In this document: in pieces, positions 41,274 through 58,085 of the stretch
Layout of the letters: every line of letters begins with the position of its first letter
Position numbering within the stretch: the first letter of the stretch is position 1
Notes under the pieces: generated by a model
What the model was told of the DNA's origin: nothing
What the model saw: only the letters and a program-made list of their open reading frames with translations
The model's database searches: none
Made by a program: the position numbers and the translations under genes
IMG/VR virus record: IMGVR_UViG_3300037400_003286
Source of the DNA: a virus
Lineage: Duplodnaviria; Caudoviricetes
Strand: one strand, 5' to 3'
Length of the DNA stretch: 64,000 bases

Positions 41274-42170
41274 TTAAGCCTTTACTATTGTTATATTGCT
41301 TGCACTCGTCCAACTTAATCTCTTAGCCTCAGGACTAGTAATAGCAACTCCTTGGAAAGTTACATTCGTACCCATATTAGCTCCAATAGCAATACCAGAG
41401 CACGTAGCTCTACCAGCAGCAATCTGAGCAGCAACAAAATCTTCTACAGTTCCTTCTATGTTACAACCTTGAAGTCTTAAAGTAGTAAGATTCACTAATG
41501 ATCCAAACTCTGTAATGTTACCTACAAAACTTGATACTTTATTATCATTTAAGATAAGGGTTTTCAAAGAAGTTAAATTAGAAAATAGTGCTGGAGTAAA
41601 ATTATTAATAGGTGCTCCAATTTTAGTAGAATTTAAATTAAAAGACGTTAAAGATGTAAAGTTTTGAAGAAAAGAGAAATCTCCATACAGACGATTATTG
41701 TATCCAGAATTTCCAAAATTAATAATATTTAATAATACTGCATTTGATATAGAAGAAACATCAAAAATATCTGTAGCTTCAATACTAATTGCTATTATTT
41801 TAGAATATTGTAATAGTTCTGGCAAATCATTACTAGTGTTAACAGTTGGCATAGACTCTTTTAAATCGTAGTAATTTGAAATATCTACTTTAAACTGTTC
41901 AGAAGCAGTTTGAGTAAAAAATCCAGTATATTGATTAGTTCCATAATGAATAATAGCATGAGTAGAATCTATTAAAGTTGCATCACCTTGAACACGATCT
42001 ATTTTACCACTAAGCAAAGTTAACTCAATATCTCTATCAGCATTGCTGTTCAGAAATCGACAATAATTATTAGATGCTGATTGTAAATCCAATACAACAT
42101 GACCTAGTTTCTTAAGATTAGGGTTAGAAACAGAACCCTTTATTTTTGTAACTAAACAATTTGTACTCAT
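41274..42170 (-). CDS. Leucine-rich-repeat protein (probable appendage tip/adhesin)
   Basis: LTSFNLNSTKI, LTSLKTLILNDNKV, LVNLTTLRLQGCNIEG. Confidence 0.75.
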   Translation of the reverse strand: MSTNCLVTKIKGSVSNPNLKKLGHVVLDLQSASNNYCRFLNSNADRDIELTLLSGKIDRVQGDATLIDSTHAIIHYGTNQYTGFFTQTASEQFKVDISNYYDLKESMPTVNTSNDLPELLQYSKIIAISIEATDIFDVSSISNAVLLNIINFGNSGYNNRLYGDFSFLQNFTSLTSFNLNSTKIGAPINNFTPALFSNLTSLKTLILNDNKVSSFVGNITEFGSLVNLTTLRLQGCNIEGTVEDFVAAQIAAGRATCSGIAIGANMGTNVTFQGVAITSPEAKRLSWTSASNITIVKA

Positions 42171-42189
42171 AATTTTAAAATTTTAAAAT

Positions 42190-44163
42190 TTAATTATTAT
42201 TTACGAATGTATTAATTGAATTTAAGTTTTTTTCTATAAATTCTGCTACCCTCCAAAGATTATCCCTGTATCCAAACATAATAGGGGATGCAGAATAAGT
42301 CTTTATAATAGGATTTTGCCCACTACAAGCCTTTATACAAATAAATCTAACTTCATAACTTCCAGCGGCAATAGTACAATTATCCTCTACAGAATATGAC
42401 ACACTTGGATCGTATGTTGTTTGTGGGCTTGTCTTATAAGTAAACTTATCAATCTTCCAATACTCTTCATTGACTCCTGCATTTCTATTACACGGAGACT
42501 CATTCCATTTAGTATATTCTTTGCTATAATTAATAGAACCTATTCTTTGTACCCATTCTTTAAACAACTTAATAATGTACTCTTTATTAAAAATTCCACA
42601 GTCTACAAGATATTTCCACCTATCTCTAAGTTCTGTATCATAATTAGTATGCAAAAAAGGAAGCATCCAAGACCATTGCCCGCTCCATCCAGCTATTTCA
42701 GTAGGAGCAGAATTTGTAAACATACCTGTAAAATCGTTTCCAAAAGAGCAATCTTTATCATAGTTGTTTACAAACCATTTAACACCATCCCAAGTAGTCC
42801 ATTGCCAATTCTTGCTAAAACCATCATTATCGGCAACAGCCATTTGAACAAGATTATAGTCAACAAGGTTGTCTATATCAAAATATTGTTCAAACAACTC
42901 TTTCTTGTCTTGTGTTGTAGGTGCTGAATTGACTCTTGTTCCATAAGCACTCAGTTCAAGAATATATGTCTTGACTTTATTATCGAATGTAACATCAATC
43001 CAAAAATCTGTAGCTTTATCAAGTGCCTTTGTGTGGTTAGTAGATTTTGCATCATCTGGATTATTGCCTACATTGTCATTAACTCTTGACAGATATACTC
43101 TATTATTTGAACCGACTATCACTCCTTTAGCATAAGGCGTAGTGTTATCCCAAGTTGGAATAACTTCATTTAAAGTTCTAATACCAGCTAGTTCCTGACT
43201 CTTGTTAATATCAGCATCATATCCTTCACCTTCCATTGTTATTAAATCCTCTGGATTTCTGACTTCAAATCCGCTATCAGAAACAGGATTCCAATTTATA
43301 TTCGCAGCATTTCCTTTTGCATTGAAAATAGAAGAATTGTCAAGTCTGCCGTCAAGATGTATATGCTCGGCTTTATCCTCCATATTAAAGTTTGCAGCAT
43401 CTTTCTTTATAAGCCATACATAGATGCCATAGAACTCACCATTAAGATAAACAATACATGGAAAACCGTCAGGCTGACAAAGAGCACCATTGTCAATCTG
43501 AAGATTCATATCATTTATTTGAGGATTTTCAAATTGATTATCGGTAAAAGTATAATCTTTAAATAATCCTTGTTTCCAAGTTCTATCCTTAAATATACCT
43601 CTTGTGTTTGCAACTTCAAGAGCAATTTGATAAGCAATATAACTAACCCCTTTAAAGAAATCAGTATAATAAGCTTTAATGTGATAAGTAGATTGAGATA
43701 CCCAGTCACCAAACTTTACACCAAACTTATCTCCCTTACCTTTTTTACCCTTACTATTATAAACACTACCATCAAACATCTTGATAGAGCCATTCTTTTT
43801 AATGAAAGCCATAGAAGAGTTGCCTTGTGCATTAAAGATGATATTCTTTTTAAAGTAATTACCTTGCATATCATTAAATTCCATAATTGCTTCTAAATCA
43901 TCAGATTTAGATATGGGCCAAGACAAATCGCCAGAAGCATTAGTAAGGTTTATATAAGCAAGTCTTGGGACAGAAAGATGAAGAGGATTTTTACCTTTAT
44001 TTGAAATATAATCGCTCCAATCTACATGACAACCAGGCTGAAATCCAGAATCCTTCAATGCCTGCTGAAATTCAGTCATAGCTTCTCCAGACAAATTTAA
44101 GCTTGTACTTACATCTATCTTGTTGACACACAATGAACCATTTTTATATTCCATTTCAGCCAT
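42190..44163 (-). CDS. CotH-family kinase-like protein with carbohydrate-binding-like inserts
   Basis: AQGNSSMAFIKKN, GFPCIVYLNGEFYGIY, DNDGFSKNW, NYDKDCSFGN; WDNTTPYAKGVIV insert. Confidence 0.8.
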   Translation of the reverse strand: MAEMEYKNGSLCVNKIDVSTSLNLSGEAMTEFQQALKDSGFQPGCHVDWSDYISNKGKNPLHLSVPRLAYINLTNASGDLSWPISKSDDLEAIMEFNDMQGNYFKKNIIFNAQGNSSMAFIKKNGSIKMFDGSVYNSKGKKGKGDKFGVKFGDWVSQSTYHIKAYYTDFFKGVSYIAYQIALEVANTRGIFKDRTWKQGLFKDYTFTDNQFENPQINDMNLQIDNGALCQPDGFPCIVYLNGEFYGIYVWLIKKDAANFNMEDKAEHIHLDGRLDNSSIFNAKGNAANINWNPVSDSGFEVRNPEDLITMEGEGYDADINKSQELAGIRTLNEVIPTWDNTTPYAKGVIVGSNNRVYLSRVNDNVGNNPDDAKSTNHTKALDKATDFWIDVTFDNKVKTYILELSAYGTRVNSAPTTQDKKELFEQYFDIDNLVDYNLVQMAVADNDGFSKNWQWTTWDGVKWFVNNYDKDCSFGNDFTGMFTNSAPTEIAGWSGQWSWMLPFLHTNYDTELRDRWKYLVDCGIFNKEYIIKLFKEWVQRIGSINYSKEYTKWNESPCNRNAGVNEEYWKIDKFTYKTSPQTTYDPSVSYSVEDNCTIAAGSYEVRFICIKACSGQNPIIKTYSASPIMFGYRDNLWRVAEFIEKNLNSINTFVNNN

Positions 44164-44168
44164 ATTGA

Positions 44169-44420
44169 TTACAAATTATATTTTTCGATAATCTTATTGA
44201 CTATTTTTGTTACAGCAACACCATCAATAAAGTAACCTGTTAAATCAATATCTGTTGTTGTATCATCCTGATATCTTCCCCAAAGAATCTTATCTTCAGC
44301 ATCCAATATAACAGACTTAAACTCAGGATTTTCTGTTTCAACTTGAGTATCAATGAATAAATCAACGTCAAAGTTTCCAGCCTGGAATACCAAGTTTGTA
44401 TTTCTTAATATTATTTTCAT
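44169..44420 (-). CDS. Small protein sharing the ENPEF...LD...K(I/V)L(W/Y)G repeat with the upstream fibre
   Basis: ENPEFKSVILDAEDKILWG versus DNPEFVEVHLDGSEKVLYG. Confidence 0.65.
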   Translation of the reverse strand: MKIILRNTNLVFQAGNFDVDLFIDTQVETENPEFKSVILDAEDKILWGRYQDDTTTDIDLTGYFIDGVAVTKIVNKIIEKYNL

Positions 44421-44433
44421 ATTGCAATTTAAA

Positions 44434-45879
44434 TTATGTTTCTTCTATATAAGGAATCATCTTATATTTCTTACCAGATAAGATAAGTATATCATTTGAT
44501 GAATCGAATTGTAACAAAGGATTACCGTTTAAATCGTAAAGTTCATTAACAAATATACCTTTCTTGTCATCTACTACACCTATCTTAGCGTATGTTTCTG
44601 TATCATTTTCATTCTTGAATTCGATTAGTTCAGAATCTTCATTTGTTTTTTCAGCAAATATCTTAGATACCTCTATGTTATCATCTGTAGCCAGGATTAT
44701 AGATTCCTCATCTTCAGTGTTGAATACATTATTGATATTTGATGTCTTATACTTTAACTCAGATATGGAACTATCAACATTTTGTTTTATATCTAATAAT
44801 GATTCATCAACGTATTTCTTGCTTGTATACTTAGTCCAATCGTTAGTATCTAAACTGAAAGAATCTATCTTACATTGATATAAAACAACAGAATCATCGG
44901 AATTAAACGTGAGTATTAATCCTCCGTTTCTGTATTCTTCTGGAACAGCAGCGATTGCTTCCTCCAAAGTGTAATTAATTCCTATGCTTCCATCGTGCGC
45001 ATTTACGTTGTAGAAACGTGTCTCAATTTCAAGGATACTTGCATCTATTTTCTCACCCTTTTCATTAACATAATTCATGATCTGAGAAGGTACACCAGCA
45101 CCGAAATAGAAATCACCATCATTCTTTACACCATAAAGAACCTTACTTGAAGAATCAAGATGAACCTCAGCATACTCTGGATTCTCTTCATAGTAACCAA
45201 GATTATGAATACTTGCATCCAATGCTGCGATACTTGCATCAACTCTGTCAAAACCAGTACTTACACTAGCGTCAAGTCTTGCAATGTCAGCCTTTGTACT
45301 TGCATCCAGAACAGCAATCTCATTTTCAATCTTCTCAATGTTTACATTAATACTGGAATCTATCTCTTCCTTCAGATCTTCAATCTTACCGTCAATCTCA
45401 GCACTCTTCCCATCAACATAACTCTTTACCTGAGAAGGTACACCAGCACCGAAGTAGAAATCACCGTCAGCTCTTACACCGTACAGAACTTTTTCAGATC
45501 CATCAAGGTGAACCTCAACGAACTCTGGATTATCCTGTACAATGTTGTTTGGAACAATACTCCACTTGCTGGTGTCGTTATCCCAGTCCTTTGATTTCAA
45601 CTGGTAAATCTCGAAGTCACCTTCCTTTGAAATAAATGTAAGGATCAATCCACCAACATGATAAGATGCTGGAACTGCGGCAATGGCTTCATCCAAAGTG
45701 TACTTTGCATCAGCACTGCTGTCATGAGCAGAAACATTGTATAACTGCTTGTTCAACTGAGACTGATAACTATTTGAATCATAGTCGAAAATCTCCTGAG
45801 AAGCAGAGACAATGCTACCAGTAGCGGCTGAATGAAGCTCACCAGGTATAGTAACTAATTTACTTGTATCTCTTGCCAT
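44434..45879 (-). CDS. MARDT-family virion fibre/appendage protein, copy 1 (constant 323 aa plus variable C-terminus)
   Basis: N-terminus shared with 52427 and 54908; internal duplications; coiled coil with DAS repeats; contains the crossover site at 44899-44922. Confidence 0.75.
   Translation of the reverse strand: MARDTSKLVTIPGELHSAATGSIVSASQEIFDYDSNSYQSQLNKQLYNVSAHDSSADAKYTLDEAIAAVPASYHVGGLILTFISKEGDFEIYQLKSKDWDNDTSKWSIVPNNIVQDNPEFVEVHLDGSEKVLYGVRADGDFYFGAGVPSQVKSYVDGKSAEIDGKIEDLKEEIDSSINVNIEKIENEIAVLDASTKADIARLDASVSTGFDRVDASIAALDASIHNLGYYEENPEYAEVHLDSSSKVLYGVKNDGDFYFGAGVPSQIMNYVNEKGEKIDASILEIETRFYNVNAHDGSIGINYTLEEAIAAVPEEYRNGGLILTFNSDDSVVLYQCKIDSFSLDTNDWTKYTSKKYVDESLLDIKQNVDSSISELKYKTSNINNVFNTEDEESIILATDDNIEVSKIFAEKTNEDSELIEFKNENDTETYAKIGVVDDKKGIFVNELYDLNGNPLLQFDSSNDILILSGKKYKMIPYIEET
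44899..44922 (-). other. Putative invertase crossover site S1
   Basis: Minus strand GGATTAATAC-TCAC-GTTTAATTCC, an imperfect palindrome; inverted partner at 46151-46174. Confidence 0.7.
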
Positions 45880-46064
45880 GCTTTTTATTTTTTGTTGTTT
45901 TATTTATTTACTCTTTCACAACGTAGAAACAACCGTTTATCATCAAATACCAGGCTGATCTAATAGCTGTGTTTTAGTATTTATCTTGATAAAAGATCGA
46001 TCCTTTTTGTCGTTTATCTCTATTTATTTTCGTTAATTTTTGTGAAAATGAAAAATTTTAATGA

Positions 46065-46174
46065 ATTAATTCCTACGTAGGAATTATACCTATTTATATA
46101 TATTATTTCCGACGTTGGATTTAAACGTTTGGCCTAATTAATTCCTATTATGATTTATACCAACGTTTAATTCC
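46065..46174 (+). other. Putative invertase crossover site S2 (46151-46174) with upstream accessory half-site array
   Basis: TGATTTATAC-CAAC-GTTTAATTCC; TTCC-N5-6-(G/T)GAwTTAwAC units at 46070, 46107 and 46142. Confidence 0.7.
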
Positions 46175-46678
46175 GATGATTTAGTTCAACTATATCAATG
46201 TAAGATAGATTCTTTCAGTTATAATACAGATGATTGGACCCAATATACAAGTAAGAAATACGTTGATTTATATTTGGAAGAATTACAATCAACTGTAGAC
46301 AGCTCTATATCTAATATTGACAGTTCAATTTCAACACTAAGATACAAGACATCTGATATTGATAAGGCATTCAACACTGAAGATGATGAATCAATTATAC
46401 TTGCTACGGATGATAATTTTGAAGTAACTAAAATTTATGCTGAAAAGACAATTGATGAATCAGAAGTATTAGAATTTGCTAACGAATCAAGTGATGAAAT
46501 ATATGCTAAGATAGGCGTAGTTGATGATAAGAATGGTGTAAATACAATAACATGGAAAAATTTTCCATATGCTAAAATAGTACTTAATAATGGTTATGTT
46601 GAAATATATGAAGCTAGTTCTTATCCAAATTATGTATTAACCGCAAAATTTGATACAAATGGTAATCCAGTTGAATAA
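46163..46678 (+). CDS. Silent start-less alternative C-terminal cassette for 44434..45879
   Basis: Open frame TFNSDDLVQLYQCKIDSFS... homologous to residues 324 onward of the MARDT-1 protein, diverging after VVDDK; in-frame TGA at 46151 just upstream. Confidence 0.8.
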   Translation, partial: TFNSDDLVQLYQCKIDSFSYNTDDWTQYTSKKYVDLYLEELQSTVDSSISNIDSSISTLRYKTSDIDKAFNTEDDESIILATDDNFEVTKIYAEKTIDESEVLEFANESSDEIYAKIGVVDDKNGVNTITWKNFPYAKIVLNNGYVEIYEASSYPNYVLTAKFDTNGNPVE

Positions 46679-46682
46679 ATTA

Positions 46683-46711
46683 AAAAAGGATCACTTTATG
46701 TGATCCTTTTT
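46683..46711. terminator. Bidirectional terminator
   Basis: aaaaggatcac-tttat-gtgatcctttt. Confidence 0.85.
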
Positions 46712-47445
46712 TAATTATACTTACTCCATTTCCTTGGCATACCGTCCATTCTGTATTCATCTACATCCTTATACACATCCCATAGATTTATATACTCATA
46801 GATAGTGCATACGTGTACTCCGAACTTCCTTGATAACTCAGCCTTAGACTTCCCTCTAGCTAATCCTATGATAAGTTCGTCGTGATACTTATCCATCTTT
46901 GTATGTTTACTCTTGCTTCCTTTAGGTCGTCCTAAAGTTTTTCCCTTTCTCCTTGCAGTAGCAAGTCTCTCCTTTGTACGCTCTATTATCAATTTTCTTT
47001 CTGTTTCGGCAGCATATCCGTAAATCTGTAATATTAGTTTAGCCATAGGATCATCTTTATCCAGGCTATAGTTTTCCTTGAGTGTATAGATCCCTATTTG
47101 TTTCTCTATACATATTCTCATAATCTCACTGATAATCTGCATGCTTCTTCCGAGTCTGCTTACCTCCGTGCATATGATTTTGTCGCCAGCATTAGCTTCG
47201 CTTATAATCCTCTGTAATTTTCTCTGCTTTATATCTTTAACGCCGCTGATTGTCTCATTCTCCCAGCTATCTACATGCAATCCTCTTGCATCACAATACT
47301 TGTTTATTTCGAATCGCTGGTTCTCTGTGTCCTGATGTGATGTGCTTACTCTGATATAAGCATAGATTTTTCCAACGTTTTTGTTCTTTACTTCATTCTT
47401 CTTTGATTTCCTAATCTTCTTTTTAATTTCTTTTTGTTCTTTCAT
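46711..47445 (-). CDS. Serine recombinase (resolvase/invertase family)
   Basis: YAYIRVST (catalytic Ser), ISG, EVSRLGRS, AETERKLIIERTKE, LGRP, C-terminal HTH. Confidence 0.93.
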   Translation of the reverse strand: MKEQKEIKKKIRKSKKNEVKNKNVGKIYAYIRVSTSHQDTENQRFEINKYCDARGLHVDSWENETISGVKDIKQRKLQRIISEANAGDKIICTEVSRLGRSMQIISEIMRICIEKQIGIYTLKENYSLDKDDPMAKLILQIYGYAAETERKLIIERTKERLATARRKGKTLGRPKGSKSKHTKMDKYHDELIIGLARGKSKAELSRKFGVHVCTIYEYINLWDVYKDVDEYRMDGMPRKWSKYN

Positions 47446-47474
47446 TTATTTTTATTTTTAATAGTTAAATATAT

Positions 47475-48584
47475 TTAAATCATTACAAGATCCAATTCAT
47501 TATTACTGAAGAATCCGTCAATTCGTGGGCATACTTTATTATTATCATAGCACCACATTATGACATCATTCATGTCGAGTTTCTTTCCAGACTTTATTCC
47601 AAGTTCCTTCTTGAAGTTATCCCACATGAATACGCTGTATCCTTCCCTTATCTTTTCTATTGCGTGTTTTCTTCCTGGTTTGTCGTCATCGTATAGATAC
47701 CTTGTCATGAACGGGAAGTCTATCTGCTTTGTTGCACCGCACAATGCTATACAGTTCTTAATAAGGAATGAATCCATCGGGCCTTCTGTAACGGTAACAT
47801 AATTGCTGTAGTCAACAAGAAGGATATTGAAGATCATTGACAATTCATTTATGTTTTCTGGTACAGTCACATTATCCTTCAATATAATCTCGTGGATCTT
47901 CTGTAGTCCGTATGTCTTATACTTTGCATTCTTATCTGTAAAACTCCTTACCTGGATACCGAATATCTTTCCACTTTTCGTGAGGTTAAGCACAAACAGC
48001 TTGTTTGCCTGAGTTGAATACATGAACTTCTCGAAATTATACTGTCTTCTGTTTATTAGGTATGTTTTACCGTAACAGTATTCGTTGCACTCAGTAAGTC
48101 CAAGAAGTTGTCTGAAATACTCCCTGTCAATTGCATAGCTGTCTATCAGTTCATCGTCGTAAAGATATGATACGTTACTTGAGCTTTCCTTAGTTAATCC
48201 AGTATTCTTCTCTGATATGTAGTCAGCCATTCCGAGTGATACGTTCTGTCCGTACATTTTCAGGAATTTCTGTACACTCATGCATGTTCCACAGTTGAAA
48301 CATTTATAAAGGTTCTTGAACTTACCTTCGAGAATAATGTTTCCCCTCTTCTTATAGTTGTCATGTGCGGAATCTCCACAACAAGGTGCAGCAAAAGATA
48401 TCCTGTCTCTGTGTACACGTATCTTTTGTTTTGCTGAATTTCCAGGAAATACTTTCTTTAATATTTCCTGAATCTTTGGTGTAATCTCACTAATGAACTC
48501 CTCCTTCGTCATCGTCAGATGAGAAGAAGCATCGAATGATTGTGAGCTTAAATTAAAAATATCTTTACTATTATCCATTGTCAT
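47475..48584 (-). CDS. gp61: DNA primase (T4 gp61-like)
   Basis: PCCGDS...KRG...YKCFNCG Zn finger; TOPRIM VTEGPMDS and YDDD. Start moved from TTG 48599 because the promoter occupies 48595-48608. Confidence 0.88.
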   Translation of the reverse strand: MTMDNSKDIFNLSSQSFDASSHLTMTKEEFISEITPKIQEILKKVFPGNSAKQKIRVHRDRISFAAPCCGDSAHDNYKKRGNIILEGKFKNLYKCFNCGTCMSVQKFLKMYGQNVSLGMADYISEKNTGLTKESSSNVSYLYDDELIDSYAIDREYFRQLLGLTECNEYCYGKTYLINRRQYNFEKFMYSTQANKLFVLNLTKSGKIFGIQVRSFTDKNAKYKTYGLQKIHEIILKDNVTVPENINELSMIFNILLVDYSNYVTVTEGPMDSFLIKNCIALCGATKQIDFPFMTRYLYDDDKPGRKHAIEKIREGYSVFMWDNFKKELGIKSGKKLDMNDVIMWCYDNNKVCPRIDGFFSNNELDLVMI

Positions 48585-48664
48585 GTATATACGTTGCAAA
48601 TATACAACTTATTTTTATAATATGAAACATATTTTGAATAAATATCTAAACAATATATATTCAT

Positions 48665-48943
48665 ATGGATGATATTCTCGAAATGTCTATCGATGACATT
48701 TTATTATTGATTAAAAAGGTACTATATAATGCTGTAAAGTCAGGAGAAGCGAAATCTGGAGATTATTTTTTATTGGATGATGACGGTGTATATATAGGTG
48801 ATCCAGAATCATTTGATGCTGATGTTCTTTTTTATGCTGTTAAAATAGACGATGTTGTAGATTTCTCAAAGGATCATCCAGAAGATTATATAAGTTTTGA
48901 CAATATAAATATAAGTGATATTGTCCGTAATTTTTCATTATAG
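48665..48943 (+). CDS. Hypothetical acidic protein
   Basis: 92-aa ORF. Confidence 0.55.
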   Translation: MDDILEMSIDDILLLIKKVLYNAVKSGEAKSGDYFLLDDDGVYIGDPESFDADVLFYAVKIDDVVDFSKDHPEDYISFDNINISDIVRNFSL

Positions 48944-48977
48944 AATTTAAGATAAATAATGAAAAGGTTGTTATAAT

Positions 48978-49853
48978 ATGCCAAATCTTAACAAATATAA
49001 AGCTTATAAAAACATAGCTGATAATTACGATCAGGCGTTAGATCTTGTAAGGGATAAACTTCCTGTTCTTGGTGAACCAGTGGTGGTTCCTTATTATTCA
49101 CCAGACGTTTATGATCCTGATAGGCGAATAAGCATGTTATTTGTTGTAGGTTCGCTTAATGGTGAATTTAAAGTTTTTGAACCAAATGATGACATAATAG
49201 CACACATAGACAGTAGCTACAATGCTATGGAAAATTATGTCGATACAGCAGATTCAAGCCTTCAGGGACAGATTAATGATATAGTTGCATCACAGACATC
49301 AATATCGTTATCTGGATCTCCAAGTGTTATATACGCAGCGACGAATGATCAAACCGTATCATTGTCATCAAAAATTACAACTATCGGGACAATAAGCTCA
49401 CATAAAATACTCAAGGGTTCAACGATAATAAGTTCTGGAACAGGTTCAAATTTGAACGGATCAGATTCAAGCACTAACGCAACAAATGATATTACATACA
49501 CAGCCGAATCTATAATTAATGGAGTTAAGGTAACTAAAAATTCAACAGTATATGTAAGATATCCTATCTATTTCGGTGCTTCTTCAACATGGGATTCCAT
49601 AAACAATGATGCGCATAAGGCTTCAGCAAGAATAAGTCCTGTTGGAACATACCGTATTATTGTGTCACAGAATGGACATAGCGTATTTTTCAATGTTCCT
49701 TCAGAAATGAGTATAACAAAAGCAACAGTAAACGGGTTTGATATGCCGTTTAAGTCATATGTTTCAAAAACAATTGATGGTAAGACATATAAATCATATG
49801 AAAGTGCAAACACATATACCACAAGCACATTCGATGTTGTAATTGTTTCATAA
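48978..49853 (+). CDS. Virion appendage protein, YPIY(F/Y)G family
   Basis: C-terminal ~215 aa nearly identical to 53403..54374; late promoter at 48951. Confidence 0.65.
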   Translation: MPNLNKYKAYKNIADNYDQALDLVRDKLPVLGEPVVVPYYSPDVYDPDRRISMLFVVGSLNGEFKVFEPNDDIIAHIDSSYNAMENYVDTADSSLQGQINDIVASQTSISLSGSPSVIYAATNDQTVSLSSKITTIGTISSHKILKGSTIISSGTGSNLNGSDSSTNATNDITYTAESIINGVKVTKNSTVYVRYPIYFGASSTWDSINNDAHKASARISPVGTYRIIVSQNGHSVFFNVPSEMSITKATVNGFDMPFKSYVSKTIDGKTYKSYESANTYTTSTFDVVIVS

Positions 49854-49935
49854 AAAGAAAGGGATATAACAGTTAAACAATATAAAATAGATATTAATCT
49901 ATAATATTTAAAATTAAAAATAAAAAAATTAGAGT

Positions 49936-51246
49936 ATGCAAAATTTTCTTGATGCGTCTGGTTTGAATAGATATACCCAGGCTCTTAAAAATGGTGATTT
50001 TACTGTAGGTGATGCGTCTACCGCGTTTTATGCTTCACATGCTTCAGCAACAGGTATTATTGGTATAATTCCTCTTGCTAACATTCCACAAGGTGCAATT
50101 GAAAAGCTTGTAAAGGTTGCGGATCAGGCTGCAATGCTTAAATTGACGACTGATGATGTACAGAATGGTGATTCTGTTCTGACAATCGACAACAACCACA
50201 TGTACATTGTTACCGATGAAGATGAACTCGGTACGATGAATGCGTTCACTGAGTATAGCGCAGGTACAGCAACTCGTGCTTTACAGGCTGACTACGCAAC
50301 CAAAGCTGGTGACGCTTCTACGGCTGATGAAGCTACGCATGCTACTTCGGCTACAACAGCTACAAACGTTGAATGGACTGGAGTTCTGAACAAGCCTACA
50401 GAGTTCAAGCCTGAACTTCACACACAGGATGCTAGTACAATCACCAAGTTGACTGGATACCAGGAGGCCGAGTCTGCTTCCGCTGTTACAGCTGATGATT
50501 CGCTGATTGCAGCTCTCGGTAAGATTGAAAAGAAGGCTGATGACGCTGCTAAATCCGCTGGATTCCACACTCAGGATGGTAGCACAATCGTAGGTTTGGA
50601 TGGATATAATGGTCCTGCTTCAACATATACTGGCGTAGCTTCAACTGATAGTCTTGAATCTGCTCTTGCTAAGATTGAGAAGAAGGCTCTTGATTCTTCT
50701 AATACAGCTGATTGGGGAAGCATCACAAACAAGCCTACTACTTATGATGCTAGCATCGTAATGATGGGTGGTTATGAGAAGAAGAGTGGTGATGTTGCTG
50801 CTACAGACAGTGCTCTTGTTGCTGTAGGTAAGGTGGAAAAGAAGGTTGATGACGTTACAGATGCATTTGAAGGACACACTCATGGTGCTGCTGATGTAAG
50901 CACAATGGCTGGATACAATGGTCCTGCTGCTTCTTATTCTGCTGTTGCTGCTAGTGATACATTAAATCAGGCAATTGCTAAAATTGAGAAGCAAGCCCTT
51001 GATTCTTCGAACAGTGCAGACTGGGACAATATCGTTGACAAACCATCAGAATTTACTCCAGAAAATCACGCCGCAACAAAGGTTACATCTCTTGGAACAT
51101 ATTCAAAGGCTGGTTCTGTAGAAGATGTTGCTGCTGGTGATTCTCTTGTGATAGCTCTCGGTAAGATTGAGAAAAAGGCTGACGATGCAGCAGATGCACC
51201 AATTCCAGCAGCTACAATCGATGCTATTGTAAACGGAACATACTAA
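49936..51246 (+). CDS. Fibre protein with five DSLxxA(L/I/V)xK(I/V)EK repeats
   Basis: Repeating units with W..(V/I).NKP and HT(Q/H) spacers typical of phage fibre shafts. Confidence 0.75.
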   Translation: MQNFLDASGLNRYTQALKNGDFTVGDASTAFYASHASATGIIGIIPLANIPQGAIEKLVKVADQAAMLKLTTDDVQNGDSVLTIDNNHMYIVTDEDELGTMNAFTEYSAGTATRALQADYATKAGDASTADEATHATSATTATNVEWTGVLNKPTEFKPELHTQDASTITKLTGYQEAESASAVTADDSLIAALGKIEKKADDAAKSAGFHTQDGSTIVGLDGYNGPASTYTGVASTDSLESALAKIEKKALDSSNTADWGSITNKPTTYDASIVMMGGYEKKSGDVAATDSALVAVGKVEKKVDDVTDAFEGHTHGAADVSTMAGYNGPAASYSAVAASDTLNQAIAKIEKQALDSSNSADWDNIVDKPSEFTPENHAATKVTSLGTYSKAGSVEDVAAGDSLVIALGKIEKKADDAADAPIPAATIDAIVNGTY

Positions 51247-51259
51247 AAACCATTAAAAC

Positions 51260-52090
51260 TTGAACGACAGGATGAAACAATATCTTGATGCAAACGGACT
51301 AAACAGATATCACACATCATTCAAAGATGACATTGATGCATCTTATAATGGATTGAAATATTCTGTTGACAGCTCTTTCGGACAAATGTCTCAAAGGGTT
51401 GAAGATGGATTTGATTCTGTTGACAGTTCTATAGCTGATCTTATTTTATCTGATATAGGTCTTGCTAATGCAATTGAGACATTGGTTAACGAAAGAGACA
51501 GAAAATATGAGAGTTTAAGTGATAAGATAGATAATTTAACTGAGAATTCTCTTCTTGTTTCTTTGTCTGTTTCACCAACTACAATTTTTGTTGGTGATTC
51601 ATCTACTCTTGTTTTTTCCGCAAAGTCAAAGGATAGTGCTTCTAGCATTATAATTACAGATGACAACGGAACTCAAATTGCTTCTGGCTCTGGAACTAGT
51701 CTTGTTGGTTCGACGACAGTAACGCCAAGTTCTGAAGGTGTTCTTGGATATTCTGTAACTGCTGTGGTTAACGGAACAACACTATCAGCAAAATCTTATG
51801 TTAATTGTGTAAGACCAATTTATTATGGAAGCGGAACAAATTATACAGATGCTACAATTGTTTCTGGTGCTAAACAAACACCAAACGGAAAATACACAAT
51901 ATCTGTAAATTCTGCTAATAATTATATTTACTTCGTCGTTCCATCTTCAATGACTATAGCCAAGGTTTTAATGAATGGATTAAGTATGCCTATGCAAGCA
52001 ACATCAGTACAAAAAGACGGTCAATCATATACAGCTTATCAAAGTGTAAACGGATATGATGTTGGTACGTATAATTTAGATGTTGAATAA
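51260..52090 (+). CDS. Virion appendage protein, YPIYYG family
   Basis: N-terminus YLDANGLNRY shared with 49936; C-terminus homologous to 40473..41210. True start probably ATG 51272 (MKQYLD). Confidence 0.65.
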   Translation: MNDRMKQYLDANGLNRYHTSFKDDIDASYNGLKYSVDSSFGQMSQRVEDGFDSVDSSIADLILSDIGLANAIETLVNERDRKYESLSDKIDNLTENSLLVSLSVSPTTIFVGDSSTLVFSAKSKDSASSIIITDDNGTQIASGSGTSLVGSTTVTPSSEGVLGYSVTAVVNGTTLSAKSYVNCVRPIYYGSGTNYTDATIVSGAKQTPNGKYTISVNSANNYIYFVVPSSMTIAKVLMNGLSMPMQATSVQKDGQSYTAYQSVNGYDVGTYNLDVE

Positions 52091-52109
52091 TTTATTACGA
52101 TAATAATGA

Positions 52110-52142
52110 TAAAGGTGGATTTGTAATCCACCTTTATTTTTT
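52110..52142 (+). terminator. Intrinsic terminator
   Basis: taaaggtggatt-tgt-aatccaccttta followed by a T-run. Confidence 0.85.
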
Positions 52143-52246
52143 CTAAATGTTGGTGATAAACGGTGTTTTATTTCCGTCATTGCAAATATACAACATTTGT
52201 TTGAAAAATGAAAATAAAATTTTATAATTGATGAAAATAAACGGTT

Positions 52247-52524
52247 ATTTAAAACCGATAATGGATTTATACATAAAAATAATATGCGTCAAAATAAGAT
52301 ATATAATGAAATGCTTATATTACATTCAAAAAAATATTCAGATAAATAGATAAAGAAACAGTATAATATCTGTCAACTCTGGATAACTGTTACAATAAAA
52401 GAAAAATAATTAAAATAAATCTTGATATGGCAAGAGATACTAACAAGTTAGTTACAATACCTGGTGAACTACATTCAGCAGCAACTGGTGGTATTGTAGC
52501 AGCCGCTGAAGAAATTTTTGATTA
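52247..52524 (+). repeat. Direct repeat of the promoter and 5' end of a MARDT gene (other copy at about 54715-55006)
   Basis: Near-identical leader, e.g. ATATTCAGATAAATAGATAAAGAAACAGTATAATAT and TCTTGATATGGCAAGAGATACTA. Confidence 0.85.
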
Positions 52525-52860
52525 CGATGCAAATATAACTCTTTATACTATGTTTTTATTAATAGCCATCAAGGAACATGGGATGCTAATGACGTAGAAG
52601 AAACGACTGCTTTAGAATCAAGAACAGACCCATACTATTCCAATAACTTGGAACTGAATGGAAAGACTTTGAAAGAACTGTCTGCATTAATCTATACTAC
52701 AATAGAAAATAACAATGTAAAAATTTGCAATTTGTATCAAACTTTGGGATGGAATAACTATAACTTCAATGAGTTTTTTAATGATACAGATTCTACACAT
52801 CCTTTCTACGGATTTAAGCAGATAGCAGAGAAAATATCTAAATTTATTTTGAGCAATTAA
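52427..52860 (+). pseudogene. Internally deleted MARDT-family gene, copy 2, with an SGNH-hydrolase-like C-terminal remnant
   Basis: MARDTNKLVTIPGELHSAATGGIVAAAEEIFDY is joined out of frame near 52535 to a fragment ending DSTHPFYGFKQIAEKISKFI (DxxHP). Confidence 0.75.
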
Positions 52861-53345
52861 CAGAGTTCTGATTGTATAATATGTACAGAAGTTTCAAGAT
52901 TGGGACGTTCCATGCAGATAATATCTGAAATTATGAGTTTCTGTGTTGAACATGGTGTATCAATATATACATTGAAGGAAAACTATTCGCTAAATGATAA
53001 TAATCCAACAACCAAACTAATGCTTCAGATATACGGATATGCAGCAGAAACAGAAAGAAACCTTATATCAGAAAGAACAAAGGAGGGGTTGGCCGCATTA
53101 AAAAGAGAGGGTAAAAATTAGGAAGGCCGTGTGGTTCAAAATCAAAGGAACTGAAATTAGATCAAAGCAGAGACCGTTTGATTATGTTGTTAGCTAATAA
53201 AAAGCCTAAAACACAAATTGCAAAAATTCTTAAAGTGAACACATCAACTATATATGACTATATGAAAATAAGGGATATAGACGCTGATGTTCAAGAATAT
53301 CAAAAAATTGGTATGCCGAAGAAATGGCACAAATATAACAATTAA
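52861..53345 (+). pseudogene. 5'-truncated, frameshifted serine invertase paralogue
   Basis: IICTEVSRLGRSMQIISEIM...AETERNLISERTKEG; frameshift in an A5 run near 53113-53117, then LGRP...GMPKKWHKYNN; lacks the catalytic RVS region. Confidence 0.85.
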
Positions 53346-53352
53346 AAAACAC

Positions 53353-53377
53353 AAAAGGATCCAAATAGGATCCTTTT
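53353..53377. terminator. Bidirectional terminator
   Basis: aaaaggatcc-aaata-ggatcctttt. Confidence 0.85.
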
Positions 53378-53402
53378 ATTATTTTATATTAATAATTCTT
53401 TT

Positions 53403-54374
53403 TTATGAAACAATAACAACATTTAATGTGCCTTTAATATAAGTGTTTGCACTTTCATATGATTTATATGCCTTACCATCAATTGTTTTTGAAACATATG
53501 GTTTAAATGGCATATCAAAACCACTTACTGTTGCTTTTGTTATACTCATTTCAGAAGGAACATTGAAAAATACACTATGCCCATTCTGTGACACCGTAAT
53601 GCTGTATGTACCAACAGGGCTTGTTCTTGCTGGAGCTTTATGTGAATCATTGTTTATAGCGTCCCATGTTGCAGCAGCACCGAAGTATATAGGATATCTT
53701 ACGTACACTGTTGAATTTTTAGTCACCTTAACTCCATTAATTATAGATTCTGTTGTGTATGTAATGTCATTTGTTGTATTGGTACTTGGATCCGATCCGC
53801 TCAAATTTGAACCTGTTCCAGAACTTATTATCGTTGTCCCCTTTAGAATTTTATGCGAACTTATTGTTCCAATAGTTGTAATTTTTGATGACAATGATAC
53901 GGTTTGACCGCTCTTTGCTGCGTATATAACGCTTGGAGATCCAGATAACGATATTGATGTCTGTGATGCAACTATATCATTAATCTGTCCCTGAAGGCTT
54001 GAATCAGCAGTTTTAACATATGTTTCGATACTTGAATCAGCAGTTTTAACATATGTTTCCATAGCGTTATAACTACTGTCTATGTGTGCTTCTATGTCAT
54101 CCATTCTATGCGAAGCAATCCAAGCGTCAGTACCATTTGATATTATATACCATTCTCCAGTTGGTGAAGCATGATCACCGTTTACAACATTCCATGCGGT
54201 GATCTTATGTGTTGATGGGTTATATGTTAGTGGTGCATTTGATGGATTATCTTTTGCTGCTTGGAATTCTGATCCGTATAGTGTAACCCTATGTTTTTCC
54301 TGATATGCTCTTCCTGGAACATAATCACCAAAATATACTGGTATTCGTCCTATATTTCTAGTTTGTAAAGGCAT
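53403..54374 (-). CDS. Virion appendage protein: N-terminus like 33870..34574, C-terminus like 48978..49853
   Basis: Direct sequence comparison; late promoter at 54404-54411. Confidence 0.65.
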   Translation of the reverse strand: MPLQTRNIGRIPVYFGDYVPGRAYQEKHRVTLYGSEFQAAKDNPSNAPLTYNPSTHKITAWNVVNGDHASPTGEWYIISNGTDAWIASHRMDDIEAHIDSSYNAMETYVKTADSSIETYVKTADSSLQGQINDIVASQTSISLSGSPSVIYAAKSGQTVSLSSKITTIGTISSHKILKGTTIISSGTGSNLSGSDPSTNTTNDITYTTESIINGVKVTKNSTVYVRYPIYFGAAATWDAINNDSHKAPARTSPVGTYSITVSQNGHSVFFNVPSEMSITKATVSGFDMPFKPYVSKTIDGKAYKSYESANTYIKGTLNVVIVS

Positions 54375-54450
54375 AGTTATATATGTTTTGTTTTTACTAA
54401 ACTTATTTATCTATTTATTCAAGATTTTGTAATTAAAATATTAAAGTAAT

Positions 54451-54510
54451 TTCCGTCATGTAATTATATGGAGGTTTATTTCCAACAGTGGAAGTGGACA
54501 GAGTTCTGGA
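54451..54510 (+). repeat. Recombination repeat A (core 54460-54483)
   Basis: 59/60 identical to the reverse complement of 57908-57967; 54471-54508 is identical (38 bp) to 55657-55694. Confidence 0.85.
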
Positions 54511-54714
54511 TAAAACTATGTGCATTTGCACCAAATACTCCTTCACTTTTAACCAGATTATTGCTTGCTGGTGTTGGGATGTCGTCAACTCCCTGCCAAT
54601 TAGAAGGTGTAGTGTTAGTATCAGACATCAATCGGTATTGCACATACTTATTACCAGAAATAGAACTATCACTGTTGGAAATAACCCCCAATATAATTAC
54701 ATGACGGAATTAAT
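54476..54714 (-). pseudogene. Recombination repeat B (core 54677-54700) plus a truncated silent C-terminal cassette
   Basis: ATTAATTCCGTCATGTAATTATATTGGGGGTTATTTCCAACAGTG, then ISNSDSSISGNKYVQY, homologous to ISNSGSGQSSDNKYVQY of the 54908 protein. Confidence 0.75.
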
Positions 54715-54907
54715 ATTTAAAGCCTATAATGGATTTAATTAAGTATTATACATAAAATAATATACGTTCAAATAAGATAAATAATGAAATGTTTATATGA
54801 CATTCAAAAAATATTCAGATAAATAGATAAAGAAACAGTATAATATTTGTCAACTCTGGATAACTGTTACAATAAAAGAAAATAATTAAAATAAAATAAA
54901 TCTTGAT

Positions 54908-57808
54908 ATGGCAAGAGATACTAGCAAGTTAGTTACAATACCTGGTGAACTACATTCAGCAGCAACTGGTAATATTGTGGCAGCAGCTGAAGAAGTTTTT
55001 GATTATACTAAAAACATGTATCAAAAAGATATAAACCAAAAGGTTGCTTATATTAAAGAGGATAGTTCCGTTGCCCCTATTCCTTCATTTAATCCACAAA
55101 GCCAAACTGTTCATCTTGATGAACAAGTTTTAAGTAATGCGCAAAAAAAGCAGGTTAGAAAAAACATAGGATTGGGTAATGGTGATATTGATAGCACACC
55201 TACATCTGGAAGCGACAATGTTGTAAGAAGTGGTGGAGTTTATTCTTCAATGCAAGAATTACGTTCCACAGTAAATCCACAGGTTGGATATTATACATGT
55301 TCCACAGCAGGTAACACAGCAGCAAAAGTAATTGATGCTTCTGGATATACACTTTTGAAAGGTGGTGGTTTACGTGTAAGATTTACAGAAAAGAATACAG
55401 CCGCAAACGCTACATTGAACATTGAGCAGACTGGTGCAAAGTCTTTATATTATAACGGTGTTCGTGTTTCAACAAACAACTCCTGGTATGCAGGGGAACT
55501 TATGACTTTGTTCTATGATGGTGCTGCATTCCAACTAAATAGTTTACCAGATTTAGACGAATATGATGTGTCAGCAAGAAACGGCGGTCAGGCATTCACT
55601 TTTGCTGAAGCAGTGGCACTTGTTCCAGAAGCTTACAGACATGGTGGATTAAAACTGAGGTTTATTTCCAACAGTGGAAGTGGACAGAGTTCTGACAATA
55701 AGTATGTACAATATTTCTGTAATTCTCAAACCTTTACTACTGATATAACTGCTTGGGAGAGGATTAATTTGGAAAATGATGTAATGAATTTGCGAAGTGA
55801 TGTAGGAGAAAGAGAAAGCGAAGTGGTAACGCATACAATTTGTACATCATCTAATTTTACCAATAGTGGGAAAGGCGTAATAGCAGATGAAAGTTCTGAA
55901 AATTTTGGAAACACCACATCTTCTTCTGATTTCTCTTGTTCTGTTTACATGGATATTGAAGACTATGCTGGTCACAATCTAAAATATACAAGATGGATTA
56001 TACCAACTACGTCAGGCTCTAAAGAAAAATCATTCGGAGTTGTTTTCTTTACGCAACAAGCGAAGGAAAATGCCATAAGTGGTCAACAATTCAAGGAAGA
56101 AGGTACTACTGGTTCCTATGAGATTACTTCAATTATAATCCCATCAAACGCAAAATATGTAAGATTTACATTCCCAACTGCGAATCTTGCTAACTGGTCT
56201 GCTTATGTCGAGGAAATAGTGTATGGAGATTACACAAGCGGACTTGGGAAAAAAGTACAGGATTTGGAATCGGAAGTTGATGCACTTGTGGAAACAACTA
56301 AAGAGGGGTATGATGAGCAAGTATTCAAGTATTCAACCGTTGCAGATAATGGCTACGGAATGCTGCCATCTTCTATAATTCTTTCTCAAGAAGGTGATTA
56401 TATAGAGTTTGATGCTATAATCAAGAACTTAAACACTCAGTTCAGCCGTCTTAGTACTGGTACAGGGACAAAGCCAGGCGTCTATGTCTATAATGGAATA
56501 CAAATAGCTTTCAGAGCACCAAGCACTTCCGCTACGGTTACCTATACGAGTTCTACCGAATTTAGAGTTGATAAAAGACATACTTATAAATTATTGCTTG
56601 ATTCAATCTCAAATGGAACAAGAACATATAAGGTGTATTTAGATGGTGTAGAGATTCCTCTTTCTTTGTCAAATACTGTTGATTGGGTATTTGATTGTAT
56701 CGGTTACTATGGAGGTTCAACCAATGGCGCAGTATGGTATTACCTGAAATACAAGTCGGCTGGAGTTGAGAATACCCTTACAAGATTCCAGACAACCCTT
56801 ACCAATGTACAGAACATTGTAGATACCACGGTCACAAAGCATATCTATGGTATAAATGAACTCACTGATAAGATAGATGAATATTCTGTACCAAGTGGAA
56901 TCCTCCGTTATGACAGTGAGGAAGAAAAGTTTGAATTCTTGTCAAGATATGGTAAAACTGATAAGTATTTCTCTTTCATTGTTAAACACGCCATAAATGG
57001 TACTGTTCTTCAGAATCTGTGGCGGGTAATGGGTGGCAACCTTTATACTTACGATGATGGGTTTAACCTTGTACATTCTACAATCTATGGAAATTCAGAG
57101 AACGAATGGGCTGCACTTTTCAGTGAGTTCAAAGCAGCTAATAACTATACAGGAGGCTATCATGGTGGCGAGATGATTACAGATTCTGGGTGTTTTGTTA
57201 AGTTCTTCGCAGATGGTATAGAGATTACGGATTTGTCATCTGATTTTGAGTTCCCATGTGAAAAGTTTGAATACATCCAGTATTCTGCATTGCATGAGGT
57301 ATATGGTCCTGATGGAGAAACTCCTGTAGTTGGTCAGCCTATCTTCGCCTATCATACAAAGCGCACTTCGTTCCAAGATGCTCAGATGGATTGTCGAAAT
57401 GATGTAGCATTTATCCTTGATGTAACCCGTAGAAGTTATCATGCAGGACTTTTCTCGCCTGAAAGAAATATTGGCACTTCAGCAATCATTCCTTTCGGTG
57501 TTATAGCAACTTTGTCAGGCTCTGGCAATTTCACTATGGCAACATACGGTGAATATGTAAGTGAAATCAAGTTCTGGAATCAGACAAATAGATGTGGTGT
57601 TAACATTGACAGTGAATTTATTGCTGGAATCAATGAAGATGAAATGTCTGTTCTTGGTACAAGTTCAGGACAGGCAGAGTTTGGTGTTTTAGATAATGGC
57701 TCTGGAAGGACTGATGCAAAATATTACAAGAGAACCAACAAGTCTGTTGCAATCACAAACGGTGATGTAATATCTACTCGTCACTCGGCTAAATTCATGG
57801 CAATTTAA
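54908..57808 (+). CDS. MARDT-family fibre/receptor-binding protein, copy 3 (constant 250 aa plus variable C-terminus)
   Basis: Phage tail-fibre-like segment YYTCSTAGNTAAK...ATLNIEQTGAK; internal crossover site in GGLKLRFISNS; beta-rich C-terminus. Confidence 0.75.
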   Translation: MARDTSKLVTIPGELHSAATGNIVAAAEEVFDYTKNMYQKDINQKVAYIKEDSSVAPIPSFNPQSQTVHLDEQVLSNAQKKQVRKNIGLGNGDIDSTPTSGSDNVVRSGGVYSSMQELRSTVNPQVGYYTCSTAGNTAAKVIDASGYTLLKGGGLRVRFTEKNTAANATLNIEQTGAKSLYYNGVRVSTNNSWYAGELMTLFYDGAAFQLNSLPDLDEYDVSARNGGQAFTFAEAVALVPEAYRHGGLKLRFISNSGSGQSSDNKYVQYFCNSQTFTTDITAWERINLENDVMNLRSDVGERESEVVTHTICTSSNFTNSGKGVIADESSENFGNTTSSSDFSCSVYMDIEDYAGHNLKYTRWIIPTTSGSKEKSFGVVFFTQQAKENAISGQQFKEEGTTGSYEITSIIIPSNAKYVRFTFPTANLANWSAYVEEIVYGDYTSGLGKKVQDLESEVDALVETTKEGYDEQVFKYSTVADNGYGMLPSSIILSQEGDYIEFDAIIKNLNTQFSRLSTGTGTKPGVYVYNGIQIAFRAPSTSATVTYTSSTEFRVDKRHTYKLLLDSISNGTRTYKVYLDGVEIPLSLSNTVDWVFDCIGYYGGSTNGAVWYYLKYKSAGVENTLTRFQTTLTNVQNIVDTTVTKHIYGINELTDKIDEYSVPSGILRYDSEEEKFEFLSRYGKTDKYFSFIVKHAINGTVLQNLWRVMGGNLYTYDDGFNLVHSTIYGNSENEWAALFSEFKAANNYTGGYHGGEMITDSGCFVKFFADGIEITDLSSDFEFPCEKFEYIQYSALHEVYGPDGETPVVGQPIFAYHTKRTSFQDAQMDCRNDVAFILDVTRRSYHAGLFSPERNIGTSAIIPFGVIATLSGSGNFTMATYGEYVSEIKFWNQTNRCGVNIDSEFIAGINEDEMSVLGTSSGQAEFGVLDNGSGRTDAKYYKRTNKSVAITNGDVISTRHSAKFMAI
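55646..55694 (+). other. Recombination site C inside the fibre gene
   Basis: GGATTAAAAC-TGAG-GTTTATTTCC imperfect palindrome plus a 38-bp match to repeats A and D. Confidence 0.8.
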
Positions 57809-57838
57809 CATACTTTTTGTAATAAGTATTTACATAAT

Positions 57839-57873
57839 AAAAGATCGATCTAATTATAAGATCGATCTTTTTT
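57839..57873. terminator. Bidirectional terminator
   Basis: aaaagatcgatct-aattata-agatcgatcttttt. Confidence 0.85.
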
Positions 57874-57907
57874 GTTTTATAATCTAATAGTTATGTACAG
57901 AATTATT

Positions 57908-57972
57908 TCCAGAACTCTGTCAACTTCCACTGTTGGAAATAAACCTCCATATAATTACATGACGGAATTAAT
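57908..57972 (-). repeat. Recombination repeat D (core 57935-57958)
   Basis: Inverted copy of repeat A; reads RFISNSGS-stop in the fibre frame. Confidence 0.85.
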
Positions 57973-58085
57973 GGTAATATACAACTTTATTTTGATATTG
58001 AAAAATGAAACAAGATTTTTCCTCATTCTCTTTCACGTATTAAATAAAAGATGTATATTTGCAACGGAATATAAATGAAACTTAT

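Follow-up and report, generated by a model that had tools for sequence, protein, structure and literature searches.

A probable serine-invertase fibre switch of T4-like jumbo phages, largely decayed in one genome

The phage record IMGVR_UViG_3300037400_003286, a stretch of 64,000 nucleotides hereafter called the window, contains between positions 41,274 and 57,972 two loci with putative fibre genes, genes of small serine recombinases and short palindromic sites embedded in the fibre coding sequences. The reading favoured here, to which a probability of about 0.6 is assigned, is that these loci belong to a lineage-wide serine-invertase fibre switch of T4-like jumbo phages that is largely locked or degraded in this particular genome. 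The original prediction for the region, a serine-invertase system with crossover sites located in a conserved fibre motif, is supported. Across the family, there are such sites, their cores match within genomes, the silent cassettes are subject to purifying selection and inverted segments are bounded by the sites; therefore, the family appears to be a real serine-invertase switch. Homologous recombination alone explains none of these features well. Catalysis would take place at the central dinucleotide of the sites, and the designation "fibre" is suggested by synteny with structural genes, enzymatic domains at the C-termini of the relatives, lead-level Atlas matches and a low-confidence structural model.

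Among the proteins encoded in the window are a T4-type major head protein, a prohead protease, NrdD, a DnaB-type helicase and an SbcC-like protein, and the close relatives of the window are found on contigs of 300-320 kb; thus, it represents a large phage of the myovirus type. The relatives named in the comparisons are L003, L006, L007, L009, L010, L014, L015, L016, L018, L019 and L020, whereas L001 and L002 are two independent JGI assemblies of the window's own phage. The metagenome scan for relatives yielded three loci only, and the IMG/VR scan with the site pattern one locus, L018, which is decayed. When the switch locus (window 44000-48000) is used as a megablast query, no similar DNA is detected among the deposited phage genomes, and an IMG/VR search with fibre 1 as the query finds no relative.

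The invertase and its crossover sites

The window contains one intact and one decayed serine recombinase gene, in agreement with the original prediction (Table 1). The intact protein matches PF00239 above the cutoff of the model and phrog_125, "DNA invertase", with an E-value of 1.2e-48; comparison with the structures of Gin (4m6f, 1.1e-16, and 3uj3) yields similarity at the 1e-16 level, with an alignment that runs to residue 215, and the motifs RVST, RLGRS and ERxxIIERT align with those of Gin and gamma-delta resolvase. The match of the C-terminal part to HTH_28 (18.2 bits) is below the cutoff of 25. The best-scoring curated family is the NCBIfam model for Mpi (NF009949; 1.2e-60), with a score of 204.7 bits that is below the 272-bit cutoff. 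A small Gin-like invertase with the Mpi family as its nearest neighbour is the enzyme that would recombine the 24-bp sites described below. The decayed paralog lacks residues 1-67 and is 64% identical to the intact protein in the catalytic part and 40% identical in the DNA-binding part. In three relatives, the locus 2 invertase gene is split by an IS607-like element (L014:1599-3832, L015:11450-13683, L016:1590-3817) that consists of a gene for a 201-aa serine TnpA and a 412-aa TnpB/OrfB_IS605 gene.

The pattern GGATTAAWAC-N4-GTTTAWTTCC has three matches in the window compared with 0.02 expected in shuffled sequences. The 24-bp sites are built as 11-2-11, that is, an 11-bp half-site, a 2-bp core and another 11-bp half-site. 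As originally noted, the palindrome occupies the same motif in both intact fibre genes, where it is in frame and has no mismatches; at the partner site of locus 1, it has two. One copy of the site lies within the codons of the conserved fibre motif, and the partner copy is located in front of a start-less cassette. At every partner site, AATTCC is located five bases upstream of the left half-site, which accounts for the pair of TTCC elements 29 bp apart that had been noticed before; this layout (AATTCC-N5-left half-core-right half) is retained at both loci and in the relatives. The left half-site of the partner sites is conserved in non-coding DNA, and the homology begins exactly there. The half-sites of locus 1 and locus 2 are similar to each other, and their inner part, AAAC(C/G/T), resembles hix and gix. 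Partner sites are present at 46151(+), 54460(+), 54677(-) and 57935(-); the one at 54460 is in direct and not in inverted orientation relative to the intragenic site.

For serine recombinases, unlike cores prevent recombinant ligation and strongly lower the rate of inversion. The locus 1-type cores match in all seven relatives that possess both sites (CA/CA in L003 and L009; GA/GA in L007, L010, L019, L020 and L006), and in L014, which is of the locus 2 type, all four sites have a GA core. The CA versus AA pair of the window's locus 1 is the sole mismatched pair among eight genomes, and the partner site differs from that of L003 and L009 by exactly one base, a C to A change at 46162, the first core position. 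The identical cores that are a feature of Gin-type systems are therefore lacking at locus 1 of the window and present in the S_A/S_D pair of locus 2 (GA/GA). This mismatch would be expected to block inversion at locus 1. The notion that the two loci have different cores holds, but the "CAC/AAC" attributed to locus 1 is not a single core type and reflects the mismatch of the partner site. An off-centre crossover, at AC or CG, that would rescue this pair was considered and rejected as less likely because the 11-2-11 centre is symmetric and position 12 varies between clades while matching within genomes.

Table 1. Features of the two fibre loci in the window
Feature	Coordinates	Strand	Evidence or description
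LRR protein gene, 298 aa, last of the expressed module	41274..42170	-	Pfam LRR_4 4.7e-08
CotH-like gene, 657 aa, expressed module	42190..44163	-	Pfam CotH 3.2e-08
83-aa gene, conserved	44169..44420	-	present in all modules, immediately behind the fibre gene
Fibre gene 1, 481 aa	44434..45879	-	open reading frame; full-length relatives with 57-87% identity
Intragenic site, fibre gene 1	44899..44922	-	GGATTAATACT-CA-CGTTTAATTCC; core 44910-44911; encodes GLILTFNS
Invertible segment, locus 1 (predicted)	44912..46161	.	1.25 kb; promoter region and N-terminal 326 codons
Conserved non-coding region	45880..46150	-	late-promoter-like box, AATTCC/GGAATT palindromes
Partner site, locus 1	46151..46174	+	TGATTTATACC-AA-CGTTTAATTCC; core 46162-46163
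Start-less alternative C-terminus, 171 codons	46163..46678	+	dN/dS 0.15-0.30
Intact small serine invertase, 244 aa	46711..47445	-	Pfam Resolvase 1.2e-34
Duplicated promoter and truncated third MARDT N-terminus, pseudogene	52276..52597	+	90-94% direct repeat of 54754-55005
Decayed invertase paralog	52810..53339	+	tblastn covers residues 68-244 only; in-frame stop, frameshift
S_B, partner-type site	54460..54483	+	core GA; direct to S_A; stop 13 codons past the site
S_C, partner-type site	54677..54700	-	core GG; within 54476..54700 with a 70-codon cassette remnant
Fibre gene 2, 966 aa	54908..57808	+	open reading frame beginning MARDT(S/N)KLVTIPGELHSAATG
S_A, intragenic site, fibre gene 2	55646..55669	+	GGATTAAAACT-GA-GGTTTATTTCC; encodes GLKLRFIS
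S_D, partner-type site	57935..57958	-	core GA; inverted to S_A; stop 8 codons past the site

Expression heads and cassettes in the window and its relatives

Three open reading frames in the region, at 45879(-), 52427(+) and 54908(+), begin with the MARDT sequence, as stated in the original prediction. At locus 1, the segment that would flip can be considered an "expression head" comprised of a putative late promoter and the first 326 codons of the fibre gene; the partner site is located upstream of this promoter of the gene itself, and both alternative 3' ends lie outside the segment. The approximately 300 nt that separate the partner site from the start codon show a mean column identity of 91% in five genomes, above that of the coding DNA, and include a late-promoter-like AGATAAATA box at 45978-45986 as well as AATTCC/GGAATT palindromes at about 46040-46150, beside the partner site. 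Judging from the sequence, this region probably functions as a promoter and the palindromes might be accessory sites. The genes behind fibre 1 are separated by gaps of 13, 5 and 19 nt, the last one being the distance between the CotH-like gene and the gene of the LRR protein, whose counterparts in the relatives are variable.

In L003, L007, L009, L019 and L020, the same head is flanked by two divergent modules, each consisting of a C-terminus, the conserved 83-aa gene and two variable genes, namely the CotH-like one and the last one, such that a flip would join the head to one or the other complete module. Copies of the 83-aa gene, for which a family search finds no family, follow both cassettes in L003, L007 and L009 and are 80-89% identical, and each module of L003, L009 and L010 includes a CotH-like gene (24-41% identity). 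The comparison of related genomes that the original prediction recommended does reveal alternative orientations, here and at locus 2. L007 has the invertase and primase genes in the same positions as the window, and the segment between the sites aligns with that of the window only when inverted, whereas both flanks (the head genes on one side; the invertase plus primase and p126 on the other) are colinear. The start-less cassettes evolve with dN/dS values of 0.15-0.3, similar to those of the expressed cassettes, and therefore have been translated during their history. In L010, the orientation is that of the window, but the silent cassette and the invertase have both been lost. The invertase and the cassettes were also lost or decayed together in L018, a more remote relative from IMG/VR, with 83% identity of the head protein, that is another decayed instance: a single site is located about 84 codons into a 1399-aa gene and adjoins a frameshifted remnant of the invertase (L018:4299-5097).

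The locus 1 version found in the window departs from the intact one. The first ~126 codons of its silent cassette are homologous to other cassettes, and the last ~45 are unique: tblastn against the relatives and a search of 5.8 billion protein clusters detect no homolog of this tail. The tail DSSNDILILxGKKYKMIPYIE, with which 8 of the 8 other cassettes end, is missing. The invertase gene follows directly on the cassette, and none of the 83-aa, CotH-like and last genes that are present in L007 lies in between. Locus 1 of the window thus retains an intact invertase together with a C-to-A partner core and a silent cassette devoid of both the conserved tail and the module genes.

Several additional observations pertain to locus 1. 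A 116-aa unit is duplicated in tandem within fibre 1 (window 45054-45186 and 45402-45534), with one unit apparently missing in relatives of 362-368 aa, and the site-bearing domain also occurs twice in fibre 1 (residues ~47-84 and ~289-327), the first copy with a degenerate site only. Its AlphaFold model (mean pLDDT 52.8) shows only a long helix, residues 149-226. The L001 and L002 contigs both end exactly at 45819, inside codon 21 of fibre 1, and the window has no exact 15-mer repeat that would explain the break. Its interpretation as an inversion junction was set aside in favour of the simpler one of a strain mixture; a strain mixture or a structural variant are both possible. In L006, two back-to-back partner-type sites with GA cores, about 100 bp apart (L006:1261-1387), each lead into a different start-less cassette, which suggests that there are locus 1-type systems with more than two cassettes.

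Locus 2 is best understood through L014, which has a GA core at each of its four sites and two divergent full genes, of 870 and 1229 aa, with the heads of both located between the two intragenic sites. L014 also has two start-less cassettes, one of 534 aa and one of 733 aa that encodes a GDSL lipase; with four C-termini and two expression heads, this intact form would be a four-site shufflon. L016 comes from a sibling sample, and the 1,749 bp that lie strictly between its intragenic sites align with L014 end to end only in the inverted orientation (96.9%), whereas the flanks are colinear (99.5% and 98.9%). In the relatives of fibre gene 2, the shared N-terminal ~290 aa (87-89% identity) are fused to unrelated C-termini, namely a GDSL lipase, a metallophosphatase, an M14 peptidase and a deacetylase; in line with the inversion between L014 and L016, the protein P0053 joins the P0052 N-terminus to the P0069 C-terminus and has its breakpoint within the site motif GGLKL(K/R)FIS. 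The Atlas clusters nearest to the fibre 2 N-terminus are phage tail and fibre families, with scores below 0.9, and are leads only.

The window retains all four sites of this arrangement, without complete cassettes such as those of L014. The original prediction of start-less, in-frame C-termini thus holds at locus 1 (171 codons), but the frames behind the sites of locus 2 extend for just 8 (57935), 13 (54460) and 70 (54677) codons. The 70-codon remnant ends inside S_B, and its beginning resembles the 534-aa cassette of L014; the copy of the N-terminus at 52427 keeps ~34 homologous codons and reaches a stop at codon 57. The S_A to S_D segment contains the 3' part of fibre gene 2. With four sites, stub alternatives and an invertase that has become a pseudogene, locus 2 of the window looks like a collapsed L014-type shufflon. 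In view of the decay at both loci, the expressed arrangement is probably fixed or nearly so, and rare flips would at most switch a fibre or its module off. The intact invertase could still be used for such flips at locus 1, for an S_A/S_D inversion that truncates fibre 2, or at sites outside the window.

Competing explanations

The claim that the window harbours two functional shufflon-like switches that generate combinatorial virion surfaces is not supported by these comparisons. Such an arrangement, in which both loci are independent and the virions released by a burst differ in their combination of functional fibre ends, is favoured by the intact invertase, the in-frame silent cassette of locus 1 (dN/dS about 0.2), different cores that would keep the loci apart, and the intact versions of both loci in the relatives. 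It is hardly compatible with the mismatched core of locus 1, the silent cassette without the invariant tail and module genes, the 8-, 13- and 70-codon alternatives of locus 2 and the death of the cognate invertase of that locus; the absence of a full-length protein with the window's alternative tail, that is, of an alternative-junction protein, from 5.8 billion clusters points in the same direction, as weak evidence. Given these defects of both loci, combinatorial surfaces are not supported in this genome, and two working switches are quite improbable. A less demanding possibility is a residual on/off switch, with flips at a low rate that change the number of displayed fibre types and not the tips. 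A flip at locus 1 would silence the 83-aa/CotH/LRR operon and yield a fibre with a bare, different tip, and an S_A/S_D inversion at locus 2 would leave a shortened fibre 2 of about 258 aa. S_A and S_D are inverted and have matching GA cores, the invertase is intact, the short intergenic gaps suggest a single operon behind fibre 1, and the similarity of the half-sites at the two loci implies that one enzyme could serve both. However, with DNA-binding parts of the two paralogs that are only 40% identical, cross-recognition is uncertain, the core mismatch would hamper locus 1, and the stubs resemble deletion remnants and not designed stops; we consider this scenario possible but rather unlikely.

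At the other extreme, there might be no site-specific inversion at all: the repeats would result from duplication of fibre genes and homologous exchange of modules, the palindrome would be a by-product of codon constraint, and the recombinase would serve another purpose or belong to a mobile element. Rearrangements do cluster in this region, which contains long homologous repeats, the inverted segment of L014 and L016 is more diverged than its flanks, and an IS607-like element is found in the same region of relatives. Nevertheless, the partner sites retain a left half-site in non-coding DNA, exactly where the homology begins; the cores match within seven genomes and differ between clades; the sites exactly bound the inverted segments; the silent cassettes are under purifying selection; and the invertase lies next to the cassettes, with which it shares loss or decay. 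Furthermore, the invertase scores only 34.7 bits against the IS607 transposase model, with a cutoff of 110. This explanation is accordingly very unlikely. A more elaborate scheme, which is possible but appears improbable, posits a single Mpi-like master invertase that flips expression heads at several fibre loci during lytic growth, between receptor-binding operons, with the 2-bp core as a locus address (CA for locus 1, GA for locus 2) that prevents recombination across loci and the AATTCC palindromes as a new accessory or enhancer element; under this scheme, the window phage would still flip at a low rate.

Several points weigh against the favoured reading of a lineage-wide switch that is largely locked in this genome. 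The opposite orientations come from comparison between genomes, and none was seen within one population. The L014/L016 inverted segment is 3.1% diverged, compared with 0.5% for the flanks, and hence is no simple recent flip. With respect to the locked state, the intact invertase reading frame suggests that the enzyme is still used to some extent, the silent cassette has kept an open frame of 171 codons, S_A and S_D, with their matching GA cores and inverted orientation, could chemically undergo inversion, and the core mismatch depends on one base in an assembly of metagenome data. In addition, at the quasi-sites of Cin, a mismatched core reduces inversion in vivo without eliminating it entirely.

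Relation to known systems and neighbouring features

Programmed fibre inversion is textbook knowledge for the temperate phages Mu, P1 and p15B; in the Gin/G segment system of Mu, the Cin/C segment system of P1 and Pin of e14, small serine invertases switch the C-termini of tail fibres. The system described here shares with these a Gin-homologous invertase, inverted pairs of short, imperfectly palindromic sites with a 2-bp core within fibre coding sequence and start-less C-termini, but occurs in a T4-like jumbo phage. It further differs in the size of the sites (24 bp, 11-2-11, as opposed to 26 bp in the Gin/Hin/Cin/Pin type), in the affinity of the invertase to the Mpi family and in the toggling of a whole four-gene module in the relatives. 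The arrangement of the Mu G segment is reversed at locus 1, with the promoter and constant N-terminus inside and the variable parts outside. Gin-type systems contain a Fis-dependent recombinational enhancer in cis; the feature seen here is the conserved AATTCC/GGAATT block beside the partner site.

Multiple sites per fibre gene family, as in L014, are also found in Min of the plasmid-prophage p15B, which has six crossover sites, and many arrangements through multiple sites are likewise characteristic of the double-inversion loci of P2-like prophages and the Rin shufflons of Bifidobacterium prophages (PMC6109161). Unlike these, L014 has two divergent expression heads in the central invertible segment, and the cassettes of the window are stubs. 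In the vsa locus of Mycoplasma pulmonis and the sap locus of Campylobacter fetus, a single expression site, which in vsa includes the 5' end of the coding sequence, is joined by inversion to silent 3' cassettes. This is analogous to the promoter-bearing head joined to silent 3' cassettes through a recombination site in coding sequence; however, vsa and sap encode bacterial surface antigens and depend on a tyrosine recombinase (HvsR) or on RecA, as opposed to a phage fibre and a serine invertase. One enzyme could serve several loci, as does Mpi, the master DNA invertase of Bacteroides fragilis and the best-scoring family here, but Mpi flips promoters only and not coding heads. Inversions that alter tail-fibre genes are known in prophages, and bacterial inversions predicted to alter genes have an excess of Mpi-family genes in their vicinity (PMC9881135). 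The jumbo-phage reviews that were searched for invertases and inversions contain no mention of them.

If the family operates as proposed, large virulent-type phages of gut or rumen communities would diversify host recognition in a new way, by flipping a head that combines promoter and N-terminus between whole receptor-binding operons, with consequences for the prediction of host range from metagenomes and for assembly breaks at such loci. The series from intact (L007, L003) through half-decayed (the window) to lost (L010, L018) shows how such switches die, and the window represents a natural single-base core mutant that is pertinent to the rule of core matching.

The remaining observations concern the surroundings of locus 2 and other parts of the window. 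In an NrdD-like protein of 1170 aa (window 7936-11448), the similarity to profiles of anaerobic ribonucleotide reductases is confined to the last ~320 residues, and the long N-terminal part may contain an insertion such as an intein. Compared with L007, where p126 directly follows the primase gene, the window contains about 9.4 kb of extra DNA (48600-57975) that encompasses p291, p436, p276, the pseudogene N-terminus, the dead invertase, p323 and locus 2. The ends of this insert share a 52-nt repeat in inverted orientation that contains the motif TTGCAAATATACAAC, also found at 52180. p291 and p323 have C-terminal halves that form a 631-nt inverted repeat with 89% identity (window 49226-49856 and 53400-54030); the domain in question also ends p276 and p236 and forms the C-terminus of the 1404-aa fibre P0056 from another jumbo-phage contig. 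The 436-aa protein contains five tandem units of ~150 nt (window 50465-51191), each ending ...ALGKIEKKA, and shows a weak PHROG match to a head-tail connector or virion structural protein.

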